A stretch of 64,000 bases of DNA, taken from assembly GCA_965262915.1 (NCBI GenBank), contig OZ253564.1:4768001-4832000 (forward strand), read 5' to 3'. Each line of letters begins with the position of its first letter. The stretch's first letter is position 1. The notes beneath the pieces are model-generated. The model searched no databases. It worked only from the letters and a program-made list of their open reading frames with translations, and was not told where the DNA came from. The translations under genes were made by a program, and so were the position numbers. Positions 28,085 through 37,791 of the stretch are shown piece after piece. The DNA is from Candidatus Spongiisociaceae bacterium (GTDB lineage: Bacteria > Actinomycetota > Acidimicrobiia > Spongiisociales > Spongiisociaceae).

Positions 28085-29512
28085 ATGACCACTGTACCGA
28101 GAACTCTGTTCCAGAAGGTTTGGGACGCCCACGTGGCCCACGAGGCGCCGGGCGAGCCCTCCATTCTGTATATCGACCTCCACCTGGTGCACGAGGTAAC
28201 CAGCCCCCAGGCCTTCGACGGGCTGCGCGTGGCCGGCCGGGGCGTGCGGCGGCCCGATCTGATCCTGGCGACCATCGACCACGGGGTTCCGACCACCAAC
28301 CGGAACCTCGGAATCAGGGACCCGCTGTCGAAGAGACAGATCGATGCGCTGATCCGCAGGCGCCGGGCGACATCCATTGCGAGGAGTACGGGATCACCCT
28401 GTACGGGCTGCGACGATCCCCGCCAGGGGATCGTGCACATCATCGGCCCCGAGCAGGGGCTGACCCAGCCGGGCATGACCATCGTGTGCGGTGACTCCCA
28501 CACGGCCACCCATGGGGCTTTCGGCGCCCTGGCCTTCGGGATAGGCACGTCGGAGGTCGAGCACGTGCTCGCCACCCAGACCCTCCCCCAGATCAAACCG
28601 AAGGCGATGGCGGTCACCGTGGAAGGGGACCTCCCGAGAGGAGTGGCAGCCAAGGACATCATCCTGGCCATAATCGCCAGGATCGGGGTGGCCGGAGGCA
28701 CGGGACACGTGATCGAGTACCGGGGCTCGACCATCCGGTCGCTGTCGATGGCCGGCCGCATGACCATCTGCAACATGTCGATCGAGGGCGGCGCCCGGGC
28801 CGGGATGGTGGGACCCGACGACACCACCTACTCGTACATCGAGGGGCGTCCCCACGCTCCCGAGGCCTGGGAACAGGCGTTGGACCACTGGCGCACCCTC
28901 CCCACCGACGAGGGCGCCACCTTCGACTCCGAGATCGAAGTGGACGCCCGGTCCCTCGAACCTCACGTTTCATGGGGTACCAACCCCGCCCAGACGGCGC
29001 CGGTGAGTTCACGAGTCCCTCATCCCGACGACTACGACGACCCTCTCGACCGGGAAGGGTGCAACCGAGCCCTGGACTACATGGACCTGGCGGCCGGAGT
29101 GCCTATCACCGACATCCGGCTGGACCGCGTGTTCCTCGGGTCCTGTACGAACGCCCGCATAGAGGACCTCCGGGCCGCGGCCGCCGTGGTCGAAGGCCGC
29201 AAGGTGGACAGGCGCGTGCAGGCGATGGTGGTACCCGGTTCCGGACTCGTGAAGCTCCAAGCCGAGGAGGAGGGCCTGGACCGGATCTTCAAGGAGGCCG
29301 GGTTCGAATGGCGCGACGCGGGCTGCTCCATGTGCCTGGGGATGAACGACGACATCCTGGCGCCCGGCGAGCGGTGCGCGTCGACATCGAACCGTAATTT
29401 CGAAGGTAGGCAGGGTCGCAGAGGCCGCACCCACCTGGTGAGCCCCGAGATGGCAGCCGCCGCGGCGGTGACCGGCCACTTCGTCGATGTGCGCACCTGG
29501 GACCGACCATGA
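28085..29512 (+). CDS. leuC: 3-isopropylmalate dehydratase large subunit (with local compensated frameshift)
   Basis: [57 protein letters not shown]. Confidence 0.95.
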
Positions 29513-30114
29513 GACCGGTCGGCACCATCTCGGGAACCATGGCCCCGCTGCCGCGCAGCAACGTCGATACCGACCAGATCATGCCCAAGCAGTTCCTCAA
29601 GCGGGTGGAGCGCAGCGGCTACGGTCGTTACCTGTTCCACGACTGGGCCAGGACACCGAGCGGGGATCTCGATCCGCACTTCGTCCTCAACCGCACCGTG
29701 TATCGGGACGCGAAGGTGCTGGTGAGCGGACCCAACTTCGGTTCCGGATCGTCTCGCGAGCATGCCCCCTGGGGTATCCAGGACTGGGGATTCGAAGCTG
29801 TCATAGCCCCCTCGTTCGCCGACATCTTCTACAACAACTGCACCAAGATCGGCCTGCTCCCGGTCAGGCTCCCCGGCAGCGAGGCGAGCGGGCTGATGGA
29901 ACTCGCCACCGATGACCCGCACACGGTCGTGACGATCGACCTGGCCGGCCAGACCGTCGAGGCCGGAGACCGCCGGTCGCAATTCGAGATCGATCCCTTC
30001 ACGAAGTACCGCCTGCTCGAAGGGCTGGACGACATCGGCCTCACGCTCCGCCATATCCAGGCTATCAACGCCTTCGAGGCCGGCCGTGCCGACCACCTGC
30101 CCGGCCTCGGGTAG
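29509..30114 (+). CDS. leuD: 3-isopropylmalate dehydratase small subunit
   Basis: [35 protein letters not shown]. Confidence 0.95.
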
Positions 30115-30213
30115 GAGGGTGCTGGAAAACCCCCTATTGACCCGGCAGTCGATGGCAAACCATCTGTTCCGCGAATACCGCGCCAAGCGCTACCATCGTT
30201 CTCGAGCACCCTC
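30115..30213. mobile_element. MITE, subfamily B (99 bp)
   Basis: GAGGGTGCT...AGCACCCTC flanked by GTAG/CTAG; abuts the leuD TAG; related to 48852-48977. Confidence 0.7.
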
Positions 30214-30222
30214 CTAGGCCAC

Positions 30223-31107
30223 ATGGATCTCCTAGCTGTCATCTCCTACCCGCCCATCCCGATCTTCGACGTGGGGCCGCTGCGTCTCTCCCTCCACGGC
30301 CTGTTCGCGGGAGTCGGCTTCGTAGCGGGCGCGTACTACGCCACCCGGCTGTATCACGCCCGCGGCTTTAACACCACCCGGTTCCAGTCGGCTCTGACCT
30401 GGGCCCTGGTCGGGGCACTCCTGGGCGCCCGCTGGCTGACGCTCCCCGCGTACTGGCTGGAAAACGGGTTCGACATCAGGGACATGATCAACATCGGGGG
30501 CAACTTCTCCATCCTGGGCGGCTTCGCGGGCGGTATCGGCCTGGGGATCTGGCGCGCCTATAGAGTGGGGCTGAGGGTCTGGCCCACCCTCGACGTGACC
30601 GCCTTCGGCCTGGCGGTGGGAACCGTGGTCGGCCGCATCGGCGATCTGGCGATCGTAGAGCACCTGGGAGGCCCCACCAGGTTCCTGCTCGGCTACGGGA
30701 TCCGCCCGGGATACGACGTGGCGCCCCAGCACAACCGCTTGGAGTGCGCGGTGGCCGAGGTGGGTGAATACTGTGGGGTGTACCACCACGCCGCCCTCTA
30801 CGACATGGTGGGCGCCATGGTGCTGTTCGGAGTCCTCTACTGGCTCTACCAACGCTCCCGCCTGAGCCTCCGCTACGGACAGCTATTCGGGGTCTGGGTG
30901 GCTTGGTACGGGTTCCAGCGCTTCCTCATCGACTTCACGCGGTTGGCGCTGGAAATCGACGGCGACCGCACCCTCGGCGCGCTCACGTGGAGTCAGTGGA
31001 GCGGGCTGGTGGCCGGGATCGCCGGGATCGCCGCGCTCCTCTGGCTGGGCAGACGGAATCCGGTAGTGACCGCCGAGAACGACCGGGCCTACGGCGCCGC
31101 GGTGTAG
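30223..31107 (+). CDS. lgt: prolipoprotein diacylglyceryl transferase
   Basis: LLGARW, GGFAGG, GRIGDL, HHAALYD, RFLIDFTR, SQW. Confidence 0.85.
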   Translation: MDLLAVISYPPIPIFDVGPLRLSLHGLFAGVGFVAGAYYATRLYHARGFNTTRFQSALTWALVGALLGARWLTLPAYWLENGFDIRDMINIGGNFSILGGFAGGIGLGIWRAYRVGLRVWPTLDVTAFGLAVGTVVGRIGDLAIVEHLGGPTRFLLGYGIRPGYDVAPQHNRLECAVAEVGEYCGVYHHAALYDMVGAMVLFGVLYWLYQRSRLSLRYGQLFGVWVAWYGFQRFLIDFTRLALEIDGDRTLGALTWSQWSGLVAGIAGIAALLWLGRRNPVVTAENDRAYGAAV

Positions 31108-31179
31108 TTCTGTCCCGTTGCGCGGATCGGGTACGACCACCTCCGCCGCCTAACCCTGATTATTCACGGGTCGGCCGGT

Positions 31180-31254
31180 TGCCAGGTGCCGGGTGCCAGG
31201 TGCCAGGTGCCAGGTGCCGGTGGTCAGTGGTCAGTGTTGGTAGTCAGTAGTCAA
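31180..31254. repeat. heptamer tandem repeat (TGCCAGG then TRGTCAG units, ~11 units)
   Basis: Direct reading of the sequence. Confidence 0.8.
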
Positions 31255-31255
31255 G

Positions 31256-31429
31256 CCTGGTTCCACCACCGGCCGGGTGAAATCAACAAGTGTGCTCAGT
31301 CGCCGCTCGCCCTACGGGTGAAACCCCTGTGCGGGACACCCGGGTTCGTCAACACTCACAAATCCCAGGTCAGAGGTCCCTGCCCCACCAGCTTCAAGGA
31401 CGTGACCCTCCAATCCTGAAGAATTGGGG
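31256..31429. mobile_element. possible internally deleted IS1380-like element
   Basis: Left end CCTGGTTCCACCA resembles the IS1380 TIR CCTGAATCCACCG in this window; right end is only weakly complementary. Confidence 0.3.
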
Positions 31430-31485
31430 CTAATCATCATCCACGTTCGGTGACCACACTTGTATGTACATAATTAGGAGGCGCG

Positions 31486-31770
31486 ATGGGTACGTCGATC
31501 ACGGAGCGGACCATCCCGGCGGGGGCGTTCAGAGACCGGTGCCTGAGGCTCATGGACGAAATCAACGAGACGGGCGAGTCGATAGTGGTGACCAAGCACG
31601 GTAGACCCGTGGTCATCATCTCGCCGGCCCCGCGCGAAGCGACAGGGCTGGTGGGCTTCATGACCGGGGTCACCCGCATCGTGGACGACTTGGACGAACC
31701 CGCCATCCCGGCCGAGGAGTGGGACATCGTCAGTAACCCGGACCGGATCGTAGACCCGAGCCGGCTTTGA
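31486..31770 (+). CDS. Phd/YefM family antitoxin
   Basis: IPAGAFRDRCLRLMDEI, IVVTKHGRPV; TATGTACATA palindrome at 31463-31472. Confidence 0.88.
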   Translation: MGTSITERTIPAGAFRDRCLRLMDEINETGESIVVTKHGRPVVIISPAPREATGLVGFMTGVTRIVDDLDEPAIPAEEWDIVSNPDRIVDPSRL

Positions 31771-32186
31771 TCCTGCTCGACACCAACGCGCTGTTGTGGG
31801 CCACAGCAAACAGTAGGAGGATGGGAACGAAGACCAAGCGCCGACTGGATGATGCCTTGGTCGACGGACAACTCGCCGTTCCCACGATCGTATTCCTCGA
31901 GGCCGCAATGCTTCACTGGGCCAACAGGGTGGATCTGGGCATGTCACCGGATATCTGGCACCGGCGGCACATCAATCTCGGGCTGCGCGAGATACCGCTG
32001 ACCGGTAAGATAGCGGTGGCCGCCGCGGCGCTGGAGCCCCGAAGCGGATTCCATGGAGACCCCGGCGATCAGATCGCTACTGCGACGGCCCTTACGCGGG
32101 GAGGGACCCTGGTCACATCAGGCTGAGCTATCCTGGCCTGGGCCGTAAAGAACCCCTCCCCAAAAACCATGGACGCAACACAATGA
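31767..32186 (+). pseudogene. VapC/PIN toxin with premature TGA at 32124
   Basis: ILLDTNALLW, HGDPGDQI; LVTSG-stop-AILAW where LVTxDxxI is expected. Confidence 0.75.
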
Positions 32187-32349
32187 GACAGTGTGTCTGG
32201 GCCCTCTTTCACCTCAACTAGTCAACGATAGGAAGGGTCGGTTGTCCGGATCGGGCGCGCAAATACCACCGTCCGGATAGTTTACGAACATCACCAGTGA
32301 ATCGGTGTCCGGGGATAGGACTCTCCAGCAAGGGTTGCCCGCAATGACT

Positions 32350-32530
32350 TGCTGCCGTCAAACCAGCGTGCCTGATATCGAGTTGGTTGGCGATGATGTC
32401 ACCCTGGTAATAGAAGGGGCTGGGGAGGTCGGACAGGACCCTGGGATCGAGACCAGGCGTCGACCCGGCAATCTGGAGGTGCCCCGCCAACGCGACACTC
32501 TGCTCCAGGTTGCTGCCGATCATCCAACGC
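32350..32530 (-). pseudogene. C-terminal fragment of an enolase-superfamily (muconate cycloisomerase-like) gene
   Basis: MIGSNLEQSVALAGHLQIA...SDLPSPFYYQGDII; approximate bounds. Confidence 0.4.
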
Positions 32531-32576
32531 AGGCCGTAGGAAGACGCGACAGACCCATGCCTTGGATGGAACAGCA

Positions 32577-32920
32577 CTACGACGGGATGTCGAGGATCAA
32601 CCCCACGGTATCCCGGATCCGGGCGAGAGCGACCGGCCCCACATTGCCCCTCACCTGACTGATCCGAACGGATGCGACGGCCCGGATGTGGTGACATTGG
32701 GCCACGGACGCTTCGTCCAGCCCGTTATGCCGATCAGGCTCGATCAAGATCTCGGATCTGACCCACGATTCCTGGTGGTCACGGGTACGACATAAACCAC
32801 ATTGGGAGATGCCGCGAATAGCGTCGGGGCGGTCACCAGCACAGCCGGGCTGAGGATCCCGGATTCTCTCTCGACGGGTAGTCCCAGATCGAGGTCCACG
32901 ACATCACCCGAGGTCAGCAT
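32577..32920 (-). pseudogene. PemK/MazF family toxin, frameshifted
   Basis: MLTSGDVVDLDLGLPVERESGILSPAVLV...VVPVTT, shift near 32760, then IEPDRHNGLDEASVAQCHHIRAV; span is 344 nt. Confidence 0.8.
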
Positions 32921-33110
32921 TGAGCCATGCCACCTCGTCGGGAGTAAGGGGCGCCGCCAATTCTTCGCCCATCCGATCCTGGCGAAACCGGCGCACGACC
33001 AACGCTACGGTCTCTCCCATTGTGGTTCCTAGTTCCGGGGCGATCCGGCGGAGTTCCTGATGGGTTGCCCTATCCGCACGAACGCTCGTGGACTGTATAC
33101 ATCTTAGCAT
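32904..33110 (-). CDS. putative antitoxin of the PemK pair
   Basis: STSVRADRATHQELRRIA...WLNADLG overlapping the toxin start. Confidence 0.65.
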   Translation of the reverse strand: MLRCIQSTSVRADRATHQELRRIAPELGTTMGETVALVVRRFRQDRMGEELAAPLTPDEVAWLNADLG

Positions 33111-33245
33111 ACATAAACATATGCAAACTTAGCGTGGCACGTCGTGACAAGCGGTGATCGACCGGAGTTGGTCGGGCTGGCCGGAACAGGCGATCCACGC
33201 TGGATCGGATTCGAGAGGACACCGGGTTCAGAATCACCCGGCGGG

Positions 33246-33274
33246 TTGTCCGTCACGCTCACGGCGGTTAGCCT
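33246..33274 (+). promoter_or_regulatory. sigma-70 promoter for a leaderless leader peptide
   Basis: TTGTCC-N17-TAGCCT, 7 nt before GTG at 33282. Confidence 0.6.
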
Positions 33275-33281
33275 TGCCATC

Positions 33282-33353
33282 GTGAAACAGACGTTGGTAT
33301 ATGCGTATCGCGGCTTTACCGGGCCCGGCGCCCGGGCCAGGCACTGCGTGTAG
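33282..33353 (+). CDS. putative attenuator leader peptide MKQTLVYAYRGFTGPGARARHCV
   Basis: Tyr-x-Tyr-x-x-Phe codons, upstream of a terminator and an aromatic-pathway gene. Confidence 0.6.
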   Translation: MKQTLVYAYRGFTGPGARARHCV

Positions 33354-33377
33354 CACCAGCAATCGTCGCAAGAAAAG

Positions 33378-33409
33378 GCCCGGAGCAGCCGCTCCGGGCG
33401 GTTTTCGTT
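33378..33409 (+). terminator. attenuator terminator
   Basis: GCCCGGAGC-AGCC-GCTCCGGGC followed by GGTTTTCGTT. Confidence 0.7.
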
Positions 33410-33437
33410 CACGGGGCGGCCCCACCAGAGGAGCATC

Positions 33438-34499
33438 ATGGAACGGAGAGCGATACGTAACGGATCAGGCGCCGACACGATCGTCGAGGTCGGATCTACC
33501 AGGTTCGGGCATGACCCCTTCCCGGCCATCGCCGGCCCCCGGGCGATCGAGTCGGAGGAGCAGATAATGCAGGTGGCCGAGGCGGTGGCCGAGGCGGGCG
33601 CCGCCGTGCTGCGAGGCGGGGTGTTCGAGTCGAGCGCCTCCCCCTACGCCTTTCCCGGGTTGGGCGAGCCGGGTCTCAAACTCCTCGAGAAGGCCGGCGA
33701 GGCGGTCGGGTTACCCACACTCACCAAAGCGCTGGAGCCCAAGGACGTCGAGATTGTCGCCGCTCACGTGGACATGATCTACGTGGATCCCGGTTCGATG
33801 CAGAACTTCGAGTTGCTGCGGGTGATCGGCCGATCAGGCAAGCCGGTCCTGCTCGAGAGGGGCGGGTCGGCCACTGTGGACGAGTGGCTCTGGGCGGCCG
33901 AGTACATCCTCGCCGAGGGGAACGATCAGGTGGTCCTCTGCGAGGCGGGGATACGAACCTTCGAGAAGTCGACCCGGGCGACGCTGGACTTGAGTGCCAT
34001 CCCGGTGCTGAAGGAGAAGAGCCATCTCCCGGTGATCGTGGCGCCGTCCGCGGCGGTGGGATCCCCGGCCCGTATCCAGCCATTGGCACTGGCCGCCCAG
34101 GGAGTCGGGGCGGACGGAATCATGATCGAGGTCCATCCGGATCCGAGCACGTCCCGCACCAGCGTCTCCAATCACATCACAATCGATGCCTTCTCCCGCC
34201 TCATGGACGCGCTGGGCGTCAACCGGATCCGAATGAACATCGATATGATCGATCGTGACCTGGTGCGGCTGCTGGCTAACCGGCATCATATGGCCATGCG
34301 GGTAGGCCGGATAAAGGCGGAACGGGGAATGCCGGTCCAGATACCCGAGCGCGAGGAGGAACTCCTTGCCATCATCCGGGAAGAGGCCGACCGGGCGGGG
34401 CTGGACCCCGACCAAGTGGAGCGGATCTTCATCCTGATCCTCAAGCAATCCCGCGACGCGCAACACCGGAAACGCGCCCGGACCTGGTCGCAAGGCTGA
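33438..34499 (+). CDS. type I-beta DAHP synthase-like domain (catalytic motifs degenerate) fused to C-terminal AroQ chorismate mutase
   Basis: Scaffold MQNFELL, AAEYILAEGN, GIRTFE, SHLPVIV, EVHPDP; CM motif RMNIDMIDRDLVRLLANR...GRIK...PERE...SRDAQ. Confidence 0.9.
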   Translation: MERRAIRNGSGADTIVEVGSTRFGHDPFPAIAGPRAIESEEQIMQVAEAVAEAGAAVLRGGVFESSASPYAFPGLGEPGLKLLEKAGEAVGLPTLTKALEPKDVEIVAAHVDMIYVDPGSMQNFELLRVIGRSGKPVLLERGGSATVDEWLWAAEYILAEGNDQVVLCEAGIRTFEKSTRATLDLSAIPVLKEKSHLPVIVAPSAAVGSPARIQPLALAAQGVGADGIMIEVHPDPSTSRTSVSNHITIDAFSRLMDALGVNRIRMNIDMIDRDLVRLLANRHHMAMRVGRIKAERGMPVQIPEREEELLAIIREEADRAGLDPDQVERIFILILKQSRDAQHRKRARTWSQG

Positions 34500-34568
34500 C
34501 AACGACCCCCGTTCTGGCCGAGACTCGGTTTCCGGACGAGGATTCGGCATGTCTAGCCGGGCGTTTAG

Positions 34569-36384
34569 CCTGAATCCACCGGTAGATATTCTGTGGTTGG
34601 GGGTGGATAGACGCGGAAAGTGCCTCTGATCTGGGACAATAGCCATACGAAACATGGTGATTGGCTCGGAGTCTGGAGGCGCTTCCTGTGAGTGGAGTAT
34701 TGCAGAATATCGACCGGTATGAGGCGGTTTTCGATGATGAGGGGCTGGTGGCCGACGCTGGGTTGTTGGCGGCCGGGACGTTGATGGACCGTTTGGGTTT
34801 GGAAGGTTTGGTGGATCGGACGGTGCGGTTGGGCGGCCGGGTGGGTGGCGCGCATCCGGGTCGTAAGGTATGCACGTTGGTAGCTGCGATGCTGGTGGGC
34901 GCCTCCCATATTGACCATGTGGATCGGCTCCGGGCCGGTTCCACCGACCGGGTGCTGCCCCATGCGGTGATGGCCCCGTCCACTGTGGGAACCTTCCTGC
35001 GTTCGTTCACCTGGGGTCATGTACGCCAGTTGGAGAAGGTGGTGACCGTAGCGCTGGGCCGTGCGTGGGGGGCGGGCGCCGGTCCCGGCAAGGGAGCGGT
35101 GACCCTCGATGTGGACTCGACGATCTGTGAGGTGTCTGCCAAGACCAAACAAGGGGCCGCCTATGGCTACACCAAAGAGTTGGGTTATCACCCGCTGTTG
35201 GCGTTCCGAGCCGATACGGGGGAAGTGGTCGGCGCCCGTCTGCGGGAAGGAGCATCGCAGAGGGGTGTGGTCCATTTCGTTGGGGAGACAGTGCGGCGTG
35301 TGCGACGGGCCGGGGCCAGGGGCCCGGTGAGCGTGCGGGCCGATTCGGGGTTCTGGTCCTATACCCTCTTGGCCGCCCTCGACCGCCTCGGGGTGGGCTG
35401 GTCGATCACCTGCCCGCTGAATGCCAAGATTAGGACACTGATCAGCAATATCGACAAAGACGCGTGGACCCCCATTGCCTATCCCGAAGGCGGGCTGGCA
35501 CAAGTGGGGGAAACAGTCCTGGAGATGACCAACCCCAAGAAACGGTCGCAGAAACGCCGGGTTCGCCTGGTAGTGCGCCGCACCCGCCTGCTCGGTTCCC
35601 AAGCCGAGCTGTGGCCCGACTGGCGATACCACGCGTTCGTCACCAACCTGGACCTGCCCGCGGCAGAAGCCGACCGGCGCCACCAACCCCGGGCCGGACA
35701 AGACGACACCGGCCACCAACCCCGCCGCGGAGAACAAGACACCGAACCGGCCGAACTGCCGGTGGTAGAGATCGGTGACAACCCTGGGGAAGCGCACAGC
35801 CCGCTGCCCGCGGTCGAAATCGACCGGTACCACCGCCGCCACGCCACATGCGAACTCGCCATCCGCGACCTCAAAGACTCCGGGGGTCTCGCCCACCTAC
35901 CCTCCGGCGTCTTCGCAGCTAACGCCGCCTGGCTGATCTGCGCCGCCCTAGCCCATAACCTCTACCGGCAGATAGCCCTCCTCGGGGGTACGCAGCCGCC
36001 CGGGCGGCTGGTCTGTGGACGTACCATCCGTACCCGACTGTTCGGACTCCCTGGACGCCTCGTCAACCACGGCGGACGCCGCCTCCTGCGTCTACCCGCC
36101 CGATGGCCCTGGGCCGGCGCCTACCTAACCACCCTCACTAACCTCCGGGCGCTGCCACAGCTCTGCTGACCCGGCCCGACGGACCCGCCGCAACCATAAC
36201 CAACCACCCAAACCCCGACCACACACGCCCGAAACCATCCCAACCAGCCCCCAACACTACCTAACCCACCAAACCACACCCACCACACCCCCGAAACCCC
36301 CCGAATCCAACCAGCCCCAACCCCTCAACCCCCCACCAACCGCACCCCGGACCACCCCCCGGGGAGGCCGTCGGTGGATTCAGG
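34569..36384 (+). mobile_element. complete IS1380-family insertion sequence
   Basis: 13-bp TIRs CCTGAATCCACCG / CGGTGGATTCAGG; TTTAG direct repeats at 34564-68 and 36385-89. Confidence 0.93.
34688..36169 (+). CDS. IS1380 family DDE transposase
   Basis: TLDVDST, GYHPLLAF, VRADSGF, HATCELAIRDLK, LPSGVFAANAAW. Confidence 0.93.
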   Translation: MSGVLQNIDRYEAVFDDEGLVADAGLLAAGTLMDRLGLEGLVDRTVRLGGRVGGAHPGRKVCTLVAAMLVGASHIDHVDRLRAGSTDRVLPHAVMAPSTVGTFLRSFTWGHVRQLEKVVTVALGRAWGAGAGPGKGAVTLDVDSTICEVSAKTKQGAAYGYTKELGYHPLLAFRADTGEVVGARLREGASQRGVVHFVGETVRRVRRAGARGPVSVRADSGFWSYTLLAALDRLGVGWSITCPLNAKIRTLISNIDKDAWTPIAYPEGGLAQVGETVLEMTNPKKRSQKRRVRLVVRRTRLLGSQAELWPDWRYHAFVTNLDLPAAEADRRHQPRAGQDDTGHQPRRGEQDTEPAELPVVEIGDNPGEAHSPLPAVEIDRYHRRHATCELAIRDLKDSGGLAHLPSGVFAANAAWLICAALAHNLYRQIALLGGTQPPGRLVCGRTIRTRLFGLPGRLVNHGGRRLLRLPARWPWAGAYLTTLTNLRALPQLC

Positions 36385-36556
36385 TTTAGGGCGCCGTTCT
36401 ATGGCGTTCGCCTAGATAGCACCACGAGAAGGCTGAACAGTGACGGTTGCAGTTGGACCATCGCTCGCTGACCTGGCTTTTCGTCATCGGCCGACGGGAC
36501 GCTGGTAGATCGCTCGGCACGGTCCTGGCTGACAACCCACTGATCCATTAGGTCGC

Positions 36557-36825
36557 GCCCTGGACCAATGGGCGTTTCTGTTCACTAACCAACAGCCCAG
36601 GCGCCCGAGGATTCTACGACCAACGACGAGCAGCCGACGACCTCCACCACCAAGCCCTACGAGCCCTACGAGCCCTACGAGCCCTACGAGCCCTAGCCAA
36701 CCGCCTCGTCAGCATCCTCCACGGCTGTCTCAAACACCAAACCCCCTACAACGAACACACCGCCTGGGCACACGGAACCATCCCCGACAAAGCCGCAGCT
36801 TGACAATTACGCTCCTGGGATGCTC
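36557..36825 (+). pseudogene. IS110 family transposase 3' remnant and right end
   Basis: ALDQWAF / SPGARGFYDQRRA..HHQALRAL..ANRLVSILHGCLKHQTPYNEHTAW; stop at 36801-03. Confidence 0.75.
36653..36695 (+). repeat. 9-bp tandem repeat (AGCCCTACG)x4 plus partial
   Basis: Direct reading; in-frame (RAL)n expansion in the IS110 remnant. Confidence 0.9.
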
Positions 36826-37791
36826 CTAGACCGTGGCGTTCTGGGAGACGACGGCGATGAACAGGACGAAGGACGCCAGCAGCACCAGGCCTTGGATTCT
36901 GCCCAGGCGCCGACGACCGGTGATCGCCATGATCCCCACGAGGAGCCCGATCACAATCATCACTACGTGCCCCCAAACCTGCTGTTCGCCTATCGCCCCG
37001 GCACCTATCACACCGGCCAGCCCCACCACCAGCAGCGAGTTGAACAGGTTGGAGCCCAGCAGGTTGCCGATGACCAGTTCGTTGGCCTTGCGACGTGCTG
37101 CCGCACCTGCTGTGACCAGTTCGGGAAGGCTGGTCCCGAGGGCGAAGATGGTGGCCCCGACGAACCCGCCGGCCAGACCGTAGTGATCAGCCACGTTACC
37201 GCCGCCCTCCACGAGCAACCAGGCACCGACCACGATGCCCACCAACGAAGCAAACGCCTTGGCGAGTTCCCGGGTCGCCCGGTACTCCATCGCATCGGCG
37301 TCGTCCTGCAGGGTAGCTCCGGCCAACCCGTCCCTGACATCCCGACGGGACCACAAGACCAGGAACACCGAGACGACCGCCATCGCCGCCACCAGTAACA
37401 GGCCCTCGGTTCTCTGGAGAACATCGTCCCAGGCGACCAGGACCACCGCGCCCATCGCCAGCAGGGTGATGAGCCCCTCCCGGCGGATTATGCGGACCTG
37501 GCCGACCACCGGAGAGATCATCGCACTGACCCCCAACACCAGCGACAGGTTGGCGGCGTTCGAACCGACCACGTTTCCTACCGACTCGGCCAGCTCCCCC
37601 CTGGCCGCCGCCAAGCCGCTGACAACCAACTCGGGGGCCGAGGTTCCGAAGCCGATGACCAGAGCCCCCACAAGAACCGGCGAGACACCCCAGATACTGG
37701 CCAGGCGGGCGGCCGCCTCCACGAACGGATCGGCCACCACCCACAACAGCGCGACTCCCACCACGATCAGGATGACTCCCAGCCACAGCAT
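36826..37791 (-). CDS. calcium/sodium antiporter (YrbG/CaCA)
   Basis: GTSAPELVVS...GNVVGSN and GTSLPELVT...GNLLGSN alpha repeats. Confidence 0.92.
   Translation of the reverse strand: MLWLGVILIVVGVALLWVVADPFVEAAARLASIWGVSPVLVGALVIGFGTSAPELVVSGLAAARGELAESVGNVVGSNAANLSLVLGVSAMISPVVGQVRIIRREGLITLLAMGAVVLVAWDDVLQRTEGLLLVAAMAVVSVFLVLWSRRDVRDGLAGATLQDDADAMEYRATRELAKAFASLVGIVVGAWLLVEGGGNVADHYGLAGGFVGATIFALGTSLPELVTAGAAARRKANELVIGNLLGSNLFNSLLVVGLAGVIGAGAIGEQQVWGHVVMIVIGLLVGIMAITGRRRLGRIQGLVLLASFVLFIAVVSQNATV

Follow-up and report, generated by a model that had tools for sequence, protein, structure and literature searches.

A chorismate mutase fused to a degenerate type I-beta DAHP-synthase barrel, and its putative leader-peptide attenuator, in an order of Acidimicrobiia

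Type I-beta 3-deoxy-D-arabinoheptulosonate 7-phosphate (DAHP) synthases, also written DAH7PS, have been described in one chain with chorismate mutase (CM), and the enzymes of Prevotella and Porphyromonas are the described systems closest to the gene considered here. In PgiDAH7PS-CM of Porphyromonas gingivalis, the Km for chorismate is 19.1 µM in the whole protein versus 207 µM in the separated CM, with kcat kept, and the dimer is held by the CM (PMC12202928). In PniDAH7PS of Prevotella nigrescens, the presence of the DAH7PS substrates activates the CM (PMC8408635). We analyzed a stretch of 64,000 nucleotides, hereafter the window, from a Candidatus Spongiisociaceae bacterium of the class Acidimicrobiia (assembly GCA_965262915.1, contig OZ253564.1, positions 4,768,001 to 4,832,000, forward strand). 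An open reading frame (ORF) at 33438-34499 on the plus strand of this window encodes a protein of 353 residues that is built like the Prevotella and Porphyromonas proteins, with an unadorned I-beta barrel, a short linker and an AroQ CM (~350-366 residues). Those enzymes have both activities and an intact barrel site, whereas 12 of 14 key barrel residues are replaced in the window protein; they serve as a model for it in that their domains depend on each other.

The abstract of the 2025 paper on PgiDAH7PS-CM (PMC12202928) calls the fusion specific to periodontal pathogens, and the order-wide Acidimicrobiia family described below is not considered there. The first-pass annotation of the window had stated that no allosteric DAHP synthase-CM complex using a dead barrel was known, which needs one qualification: Song et al. 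(2005; BMC Biol 3:13, PMC1173090) refer in one sentence to a 'bizarre' aroA I-beta 'pseudogene' of Shewanella oneidensis, fused to aroQ-pheA. As in the window, a degenerate I-beta domain there stands in frame with a CM protein while other DAHP synthases catalyze; the architecture is different, with the order CM, prephenate dehydratase and C-terminal dead barrel, and the sentence gives neither a selection analysis nor a function. Our literature search, with supplements outside its scope, turned up no publication that describes a C-terminal CM joined to a dead DAHP-synthase barrel. The N-terminally CM-linked DAH7PS of Bacillus subtilis, Listeria and Geobacillus (3NVT, 5J6F; PMC5526877) also combine a CM and an I-beta barrel in one chain in which one domain is mainly a regulator, but they are the mirror image of the present case: a CM-like domain regulates a working DAHP synthase, whereas in the window a barrel that appears non-catalytic sits on a CM. 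The DAHPS-CM complex of Mycobacterium tuberculosis resembles it in that the performance of an AroQ CM depends on contact with a DAHP synthase, and differs in being non-covalent and in having a type II, catalytically active partner (PMC7762937, PMC4281200). What is new here is the pseudoenzyme form of the C-terminal CM-linked DAH7PS, an architecture that is itself already known.

The fused domains and the separate DAHP synthase

The 353-codon frame is intact and contains the conserved flanking scaffold motifs that the first-pass annotation had listed. Residues 1-260 (33438-34217, plus strand) form a (beta/alpha)8 barrel of the type I-beta DAHP-synthase family whose active site is degenerate, as supported by Pfam, NCBIfam, PDB alignments and an AlphaFold2 (AF2) model, and residues 261-353 with the stop codon (34218-34499, plus strand) form an AroQ (CM_2) chorismate mutase domain, as supported by Pfam, the alignment to 1ECM and AF2; Pfam and the AF2 model agree on the order barrel-linker-CM in one chain. 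The Pfam match to DAHP_synth_1 (PF00793) covers residues 24-254 (181 bits against a cut-off of 25.5), and that to CM_2 (PF01817) covers residues 264-342 (72.2 bits against 27; 79 of 80 profile positions). The equivalog cut-offs of two NCBIfam models are passed as well, those of TIGR01361 (Bacillus-type DAHP-synthase domain; 292.9 against 267.75) and NF009239 ('bifunctional DAHP synthase/chorismate mutase'; 314.8 against 279), so that an automatic pipeline would label the fusion protein a two-function enzyme. In phmmer searches against PDB sequences, residues 5-263 align with Aeropyrum pernix 1VS1 without a gap (E 9e-76; 51% identity over 259 columns), and the alignment with Pyrococcus furiosus 1ZCO has one gap only, near residue 25. 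The AF2 model, built from an alignment of 53 sequences, has a mean pLDDT (predicted local distance difference test) of 90.3, and its barrel superposes at 1.6 Å root-mean-square deviation on 1VS1 over 259 columns (template-modeling score 0.94); the barrel fold is predicted with confidence.

Every active-site substitution named in the first-pass annotation was seen in the alignments to 1VS1 and 1ZCO. GPC is replaced by GPR (R35), FKPRTSPY by FESSASPY (E64, S65, S66, A67), QIGARN by YVDPGS (Y115 to S120), LLKRG by LLERG (E140), ERG by EAG (A170), DPSH by APSA (A202, A205) and ALSD by SRTS (S242, at the last metal Asp), and the Glu and His of EVHP are retained. The key positions comprise R35, E64, S66, A67, Y115, G119, S120, E140, A170, A202, A205 and S242, all changed, and E231 and H233, both kept. 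The metal ligands, which we take to be Cys31, His201, Glu227 and Asp238 in P. furiosus numbering, align in the 1ZCO register with R35, A205, E231 and S242, so only the Glu (E231) is retained of the four. The Lys and Arg residues of the KPRT, GARN, KRG and ERG motifs, which presumably bind phosphoenolpyruvate (PEP) and erythrose 4-phosphate (E4P) in the type I-beta family, are retained at none of their five positions (E64, S66, G119, E140, A170).

As a reference set, the 150 best representatives were taken from a library clustered at 50% identity, and 134 of them had at least 225 barrel positions aligned. Each of the 14 chosen active-site positions is canonical in 120-133 of these 134 barrels, and the metal-ligand Cys, His, Glu and Asp in 128, 128, 128 and 127 of them. 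The window protein keeps 2 of the 14 despite its 51% identity to 1VS1, which indicates that the losses are concentrated on the active site; with a uniform change rate of 49%, simple arithmetic gives a probability of ~0.005 for 12 or more changes among the 14, and those sites are the least variable. As read from the alignment, the charge of the pocket is switched from cationic to anionic by E64, D117, E140 and E231, with R35 at the site of the metal-binding Cys. Pfam, TIGR01361, 1VS1 and the predicted structure all place the domain in the type I-beta DAHP-synthase fold and sequence family, and it lacks the metal ligands and the PEP- and E4P-binding Lys and Arg residues expected of a type I-beta DAHP synthase as an enzyme. 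A bifunctional DAH7PS-CM in which both active sites are competent is not what the window protein appears to be, although orthologs in two other families of the order (f7 and f9; 14 of 14 positions) do have this form. To judge from its residues and its substitution rates (below), the barrel would be a pseudoenzyme domain, that is, an enzyme homologue without catalytic residues under purifying selection, and is unlikely to retain DAHP-synthase activity.

The window's genome (G000) is a single 5.06-Mb contig, and marker genes put its completeness at 96.4%. A further PF00793 match in it lies at C1:4572391-4573110 (253 bits). This intact paralog, a second DAHP synthase of the kind that the first-pass annotation had suggested looking for, has an N-terminal regulatory domain and all canonical motifs, is 47% identical to the fusion barrel and adjoins a prephenate dehydrogenase gene; DAHP synthesis in this genome therefore has another provider. 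A type II DAHP synthase was searched for in the same genome and not found. The catalytic set is invariant in 21 of 21 same-family paralogs, and 23 further paralog barrels from other fusion-bearing genomes keep 14 of 14 positions, a count that accepts Arg at 115 and Asp at 231 as the clade's own variants. In all, an I-beta paralog with all 14 positions accompanies the fusion in 44 of 45 fusion-bearing genomes. The 45th carrier, G040, has a type II enzyme and no I-beta paralog, and its fusion is strongly decayed (2 of 14). Three non-carriers (G008, G016 and G051) combine a type II DAHP synthase with a small CM that stands free, which we take to be the M. tuberculosis arrangement.

The CM domain is predicted by AF2 to consist of three long helices (261-295, 303-319 and 324-352), and its alignment to E. 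coli CM (1ECM) is ungapped over chain residues 10-85. For the E. coli active site we assume Arg11', Arg28, Lys39, Arg51, Glu52, Ser84 and Gln88. R265, R282, K293, R305, E306 and S338 align with Arg11, Arg28, Lys39, Arg51, Glu52 and Ser84, and Q342, just beyond the aligned stretch, is in register with Gln88. Among 53 aligned fusion proteins R265, R282, K293 and E306 are invariant and R305, S338 and Q342 at least 90% conserved, so the AroQ pattern of Arg, Arg, Lys, Arg-Glu, Ser and Gln noted at first pass is kept here and in the relatives; the three-helix profile and the complete set of active-site positions mark the domain, by its sequence, as an AroQ (CM_2) member. The fusion is the sole CM_2 match in G000, where a Pfam search for CM_1 gave no match, and 43 of the 45 fusion-bearing genomes likewise show no CM_2 match besides the fused CM. 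The fusion gene thus encodes what looks like the bacterium's only chorismate mutase, and since prephenate dehydratase and prephenate dehydrogenase are both encoded in G000, the Phe/Tyr branch needs the CM of the fusion.

Distribution of the fusion and selection on its barrel

We searched 61 genomes of the same order, two of which (G032 and G043, marked as unpublished) count only as non-carriers in the denominators and contributed no sequence. The full-length fusion occurs in 45 of the 61, comprising 25 of the 29 genomes of the window's family (f1, G000 included) and 20 of the 32 from other families; all 45 were extracted, and one copy (G050) is cut by a contig end. The barrel is intact in 4 and degenerate to differing degrees in 41. 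Of the 14 positions, 14 are kept in f7 (3 genomes) and f9 (1), 10 in f11 (3), 8 in f4 (1), 7 in f6 (3), 6-7 in f12 (3), 4-5 in f8 (3), and 2-4 in both f2 (3) and f1 (25), and the substitutions of the window protein are common to all 25 same-family orthologs. The replacement residues are specific to families: at position 35, f1 has R, f8 has S, f2 has V, T or G and the others have C, and position 140 is E, R, H, K or N across families. Because the replacements differ between families, there is no shared new pocket, which fits a pocket that has become irrelevant on a scaffold that has not.

In a FastTree phylogeny of 163 barrels, all 32 degenerate rows with a C-terminal CM form one group (support 99), the intact fusion P0123, whose barrel is identical to that of G054, is sister to this group (support 98), and the Acidimicrobiia fusion clade stands apart from the other intact C-terminal fusions. 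In a quick IQ-TREE analysis of 57 rows, the degenerate f2 and f11 fusions group with the intact f7 and f9 fusions (support 91), which hinted at three or more independent decays. We set that scenario aside, since a single clade of the 40 degenerate rows is not rejected by the approximately unbiased (AU) test (p-AU 0.554), the tree constrained to it being better by 1.73 log-likelihood units. Degenerate barrels also occur outside the Acidimicrobiia clade: P0160, P0162, P0209 and P0224 (667-688 residues, N-terminal CM) keep 5-8 of the 14 positions and probably match the Shewanella-type P-protein with a dead barrel (Song et al. 2005), and P0167 (305 residues) keeps 4 of the 14.

Ratios of nonsynonymous to synonymous substitution rates (dN/dS) were calculated by the NG86 method on codon alignments from the 21 same-family genomes with both genes in the extracted loci, using the 37 of 210 genome pairs whose dS lay between 0.05 and 1.0 in all four domains. 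The median dN/dS over these 37 pairs is 0.110 for the dead barrel, below 1 in the test that the first-pass annotation had suggested, 0.237 for the fused CM, 0.053 for the barrel of the live paralog and 0.155 for the paralog's regulatory domain. With 157 pairs (dS up to 2.5) the values are 0.121, 0.179, 0.060 and 0.152 in the same order, so that in the window's family the dead barrel is more constrained than the CM attached to it. The intact fused barrels of f7 give 0.091-0.105, and the degenerate ones 0.042-0.070 in f6, 0.062-0.090 in f8, 0.040-0.095 in f11, 0.140-0.212 in f2 and 0.175 in f12; these ranges indicate a similar degree of constraint on dead barrels and on the intact fused one. Over the 25 members of f1, 126 of 248 barrel columns are invariant, versus 166 in the live paralog. 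No frameshift or stop interrupts the fusion in any of the 45 genomes, three apparent inside stops lying past the gene end. The barrel is retained by purifying selection and is not decaying.

The 14 positions differ widely in their variability within f1. R35, A202, E231 and H233 are invariant, E64, S120, E140 and A205 nearly so, as are the neighboring D117 and P118, while positions 66, 67, 115, 119, 170 and 242 are highly variable (entropy 0.97-2.72). This mixture of fixed and variable positions points to a pocket that is partly relaxed and partly re-fixed, with acidic residues replacing positive ones.

The upstream leader and the neighborhood of the gene

Leader-peptide attenuators of the E. 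coli trp and pheA type have a short ORF rich in regulatory residues, three overlapping helices and a terminator before the gene. Putative attenuators have also been tabulated for aromatic genes that include the aroA I-beta-aroQ gene of Bacteroides (Song et al. 2005, PMC1173090). The region upstream of the fusion gene shows the same anatomy by its sequence, namely an ORF with regulatory codons, three alternative helices and an intrinsic terminator; it is unlike the E. coli leaders in being apparently leaderless and short (~125 nt) and in mixing Tyr and Phe codons. A leader of this kind is not described for such fusions of the Acidimicrobiia group in the literature searched, and no Rfam family matched it (window positions 30000-37000, E up to 1).

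A putative promoter lies at 33246-33274 on the plus strand, with a -35-like TTGTCC (33246-33251), a 17-nt spacer and a -10-like TAGCCT (33269-33274). Both hexamer blocks and their spacing are conserved in an upstream alignment of 30 loci, but a consensus promoter scan of the upstream region gave 0 promoter-like sites and did not call this pair. Such a promoter would put the transcript start at about the GTG of the leader ORF, and the upstream ORF would then be leaderless. The leader ORF (33282-33353, plus strand) has 23 codons and a stop, from GTG to TAG, and carries the regulatory run V-Y-A-Y-R-G-F, in which Tyr, Tyr and Phe account for three of seven codons; the runs of relatives, which read VYSYFAF, FYAYYAF or FFAYFGF, have 4-5 of seven. 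All 30 loci of f1, f4, f6 and f8 have a short ORF in frame that contains 3-8 Phe and Tyr codons, and such an ORF also occurs at 10 of 14 additional loci, among them intact fusions from f7 and f9. The attenuator is common to degenerate and intact fusions and to at least 8 families of the order.

Helix 1:2 (33319-33335, plus strand) pairs CCGGGC at 33319-33324 with GCCCGG at 33330-33335, just 3' of the Phe/Tyr codons; it appears in the minimum-free-energy fold, and 97.1% of its cells are paired in an alignment of 29 distinct sequences. The candidate antiterminator, helix 2:3 (33332-33383, plus strand), was proposed from the sequence as seven G-C pairs between 33332-33338 and 33377-33383, mutually exclusive with both helix 1:2 and the terminator. 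Of its 202 cells 98.0% are paired, two of the seven pairs change on both sides (4 cells), the covariation score is reached by 0 of 500 shuffles, and sliding the partner drops pairing to at most 58%. The intrinsic-terminator hairpin (33378-33409, plus strand) has a 9-bp stem (33378-33386/33391-33399) and a loop of 4, followed by GGTTTTCGTT, and lies 29 nt 5' of the start codon; across the 29 distinct sequences pairing is 100% in the main stem of 8 pairs and 93.1% at the ninth, innermost pair. Terminator-like sites in the region number 2, the same hairpin on each strand, against 1.1 expected. A Shine-Dalgarno sequence, AGAGGAG (33427-33433, plus strand), stands 4 nt before the ATG, and its GGAG core is conserved in the 30-locus alignment.

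These elements suggest that the fusion gene is preceded by a leader-peptide attenuator that reads Tyr and Phe, in which ribosome stalling at the Tyr/Phe codons would favor the antiterminator and the terminator would form otherwise. The public sequencing runs compared with the locus, all of them contigs in which level, strand and true ends are unreadable and uncovered parts are uninformative, give weak hints. Contigs from two RNA libraries (X3 and X6) extend from leader position 33314 across the terminator into the coding sequence, to 33523 and 33577. A contig of a third run (X1), which is RNA only by guess, matches the predicted leader transcript exactly (33285-33409), from near the start of the leader ORF to where the terminator's T-run ends, and continues with 120 unlike, A-rich letters, which is at most a weak hint of a terminated leader RNA. 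Since the same leader precedes the intact fusions of f7 and f9, it must predate the death of the barrel and shows only that the gene belongs to the Phe/Tyr regulon; for the same reason we discarded the leader as proof of a CM-only role. Upstream of the live paralog, L001 and 20 related loci have a short region in which a promoter-like block, GGGTCTATCCTC, is conserved. Neither a leader ORF nor a terminator was visible there in the last 240 columns and first 12 rows of the 21-locus alignment or in three-frame translations of 6 loci, from which we conclude that regulation differs between the two paralogs.

The fusion gene stands alone, with no aromatic-pathway gene adjoining it. Further upstream lie lgt (30223-31104) and the two leuCD-like genes of a dehydratase in the aconitase family, one for the large subunit (28085-29509) and one for the small (29509-30111). 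A 94-codon ORF (31486-31770) shares 4 bases with the start of an ORF for a PIN-domain protein (31767-32126; Pfam PIN, E 2e-9), the layout of a VapBC-type toxin-antitoxin pair in which the PIN ORF is the member with a domain match. Three short minus-strand ORFs (32904-33110, 32744-32920 and 32577-32747) resemble, by eye, a small antitoxin with a broken toxin of the MazF/PemK kind after it. A DDE transposase ORF (34661-36169; PF13701, E 7e-35) starts 160 nt 3' of the fusion gene, and its start is overlapped by both an Rfam match to Ms_IGR-7, an actinobacterial sRNA (34570-34687, minus strand; 44.9 bits against a gathering score of 45), and a 16-nt inverted repeat (34578-34593/34703-34718). The 'sRNA' match may be part of the end of the mobile element. 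The inverted repeats around the transposase defined no clear element ends.

The role of the retained barrel

The first-pass annotation had proposed a selected pseudoenzyme rather than decay, perhaps serving the CM as an oligomerization or allosteric module; the shared substitutions, a dN/dS far below 1 and the intact second DAHP synthase support a selected pseudoenzyme, and the module role is plausible by analogy with the Porphyromonas enzyme. The pseudoenzyme proposal would have yielded to close orthologs with intact motifs combined with neutral decay in this lineage only, and one half of that case was found: intact fused orthologs exist in two other families of the order, but the decay is neither neutral nor confined to the lineage. 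The explanation that we favor, with moderate confidence and partly by analogy with the working fusions, is that the barrel is a non-catalytic support or allosteric module for the CM. The Phe/Tyr branch would draw its chorismate mutase from the fusion gene, the N-terminal 260 residues of the fusion protein would no longer make DAHP, and DAHP synthesis would be carried out by the separate intact paralog with the N-terminal regulatory domain. The dead barrel would be kept because the fused CM depends on it, both as a folding or quaternary scaffold and as a tuner of chorismate affinity, a dependence that the two Bacteroidota enzymes make plausible. The ancestor would have been a true two-function DAH7PS-CM enzyme, a state still alive in f7 and f9, and a second DAHP synthase would have made the chemistry of the barrel redundant and left only a non-catalytic role under selection.

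Several observations weigh against this explanation. Besides the full fusion, G021 and G022 carry a barrel-less partial duplicate of the fusion CM (L072 1529-1849 and L073 767-1060, respectively), which starts at about residue 247, is 70-73% identical, retains the catalytic positions and stands directly after an unrelated gene; together with the free-standing CMs of the three genomes without the fusion (G008, G016, G051), these duplicates indicate that such a CM can in principle exist without the barrel. The CM census is based on Pfam models and, for G000, on a genome whose completeness by marker genes is 96.4%. That DAHP-synthase activity has been lost is deduced from the residues by themselves, and the Phe/Tyr leader, being common to intact fusions, is by itself no argument for a CM-only role. 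A search for a docking surface specific to fusions took barrel positions with conservation of at least 90% among 44 fusions and no more than 20% among 88 unfused barrels; only P29, E100 and G260 qualify, and no docking surface stands out by sequence. Several replacement residues are fixed in f1 (R35 and A202, and nearly E64, D117, P118 and E140), which could mean a new ligand site and not mere filler.

That last point leads to an alternative in which the barrel is a small-molecule sensor whose remodeled pocket binds a metabolite, such as prephenate, a cation or an aromatic amino acid, and exerts allosteric control over the fused CM. The type-II shifts fixed in the family (C35R, K64E, G117D, T118P and D202A, with entropy of at most 0.3 in both paralog sets), the reversed charge of the pocket and the signaling of barrel occupancy to the CM in the working Prevotella enzyme (PMC8408635) would all suit a sensor. 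The fixed residues are, however, family-specific, other degenerate families differ at the same positions with no common new site, and even inside the family 6 of the 14 positions vary strongly; we regard a sensor as possible but doubtful. Type I-beta DAHP synthases are oligomers, and the dead barrel might instead be a docking subunit that forms mixed oligomers with the live paralog through conserved barrel-barrel interfaces, which would unite CM and DAHP synthase in one complex and allow feedback of chorismate or prephenate on the live enzyme. The I-beta paralog carried alongside the fusion in 44 of 45 genomes would agree with this, as would the activation of M. tuberculosis CM by more than 100-fold by its DAHP synthase (PMC7762937, PMC4281200). 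Docking is nonetheless unlikely in our estimation, given that the strongly decayed fusion of G040 has only a type II enzyme beside it and that the paralog is only 47% identical to the barrel.

A barrel that is still a DAHP synthase or related aldolase, working through different, metal-independent residues as non-metal 3-deoxy-D-manno-octulosonate 8-phosphate (KDO8P) synthases do with Asn for Cys, could explain why the metal Glu and the neighboring His are retained and why the TIGR01361 and NF009239 cut-offs are passed, and metal-independent relatives do exist in the KDO8P synthase branch, to judge by the titles of PDB entries 2nwr and 2nxg. All five phosphate- or carboxylate-binding Lys and Arg residues (K64, R66, R119, K140 and R170) are replaced, three of them by acidic or small residues, and close relatives differ freely at several of these sites, as a working active site would not, which renders a residual enzyme highly improbable. 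Least credible of all is a neutrally decaying remnant awaiting deletion: the graded series of decay across families and the barrel-less CM duplicates in two genomes might be read in this way, but dN/dS is 0.04-0.21 in every degenerate family, none of the 45 genomes has a frameshift or stop, 126 of 248 barrel columns are invariant over 25 genomes and AF2 predicts the fold with confidence. More speculatively, the non-catalytic module could be a frozen allosteric switch, in which R35 together with E64, D117, E140 and E231 mimics the occupied state and keeps the CM permanently 'on', or could dock onto the live paralog as a regulatory DAHPS-CM complex; this we put forward only tentatively, as a doubtful extension. 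If it were true, the order of Acidimicrobiia would provide a natural series (14, 10, 8, 7, 5 and 2 of 14 positions kept) in which an enzyme turned stepwise into a regulatory domain.

The favored explanation, a non-catalytic barrel serving the CM, bears first on annotation. Public sources name degenerate relatives '3-deoxy-7-phosphoheptulonate synthase' or 'bifunctional...', an example being P0103, whose motifs are degenerate. Public annotations of the gene as a two-function enzyme are probably wrong, and metabolic reconstructions would count a DAHP synthase that is probably not there and could miss the gene as the only CM. The compact, apparently leaderless Tyr/Phe attenuator would also be of interest in its own right, coming from an actinobacterial class that has been little studied. 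How DAH7PS and CM depend on each other is the subject of active work on two Bacteroidota enzymes, and here one activity appears to have been removed naturally with the domain kept, so that the dead-barrel fusion may offer a direct test case for what the barrel does for the CM apart from catalysis. With intact, partly decayed and fully decayed versions in one order, all under purifying selection, the family may further serve as a tractable series for the origin of a pseudoenzyme.

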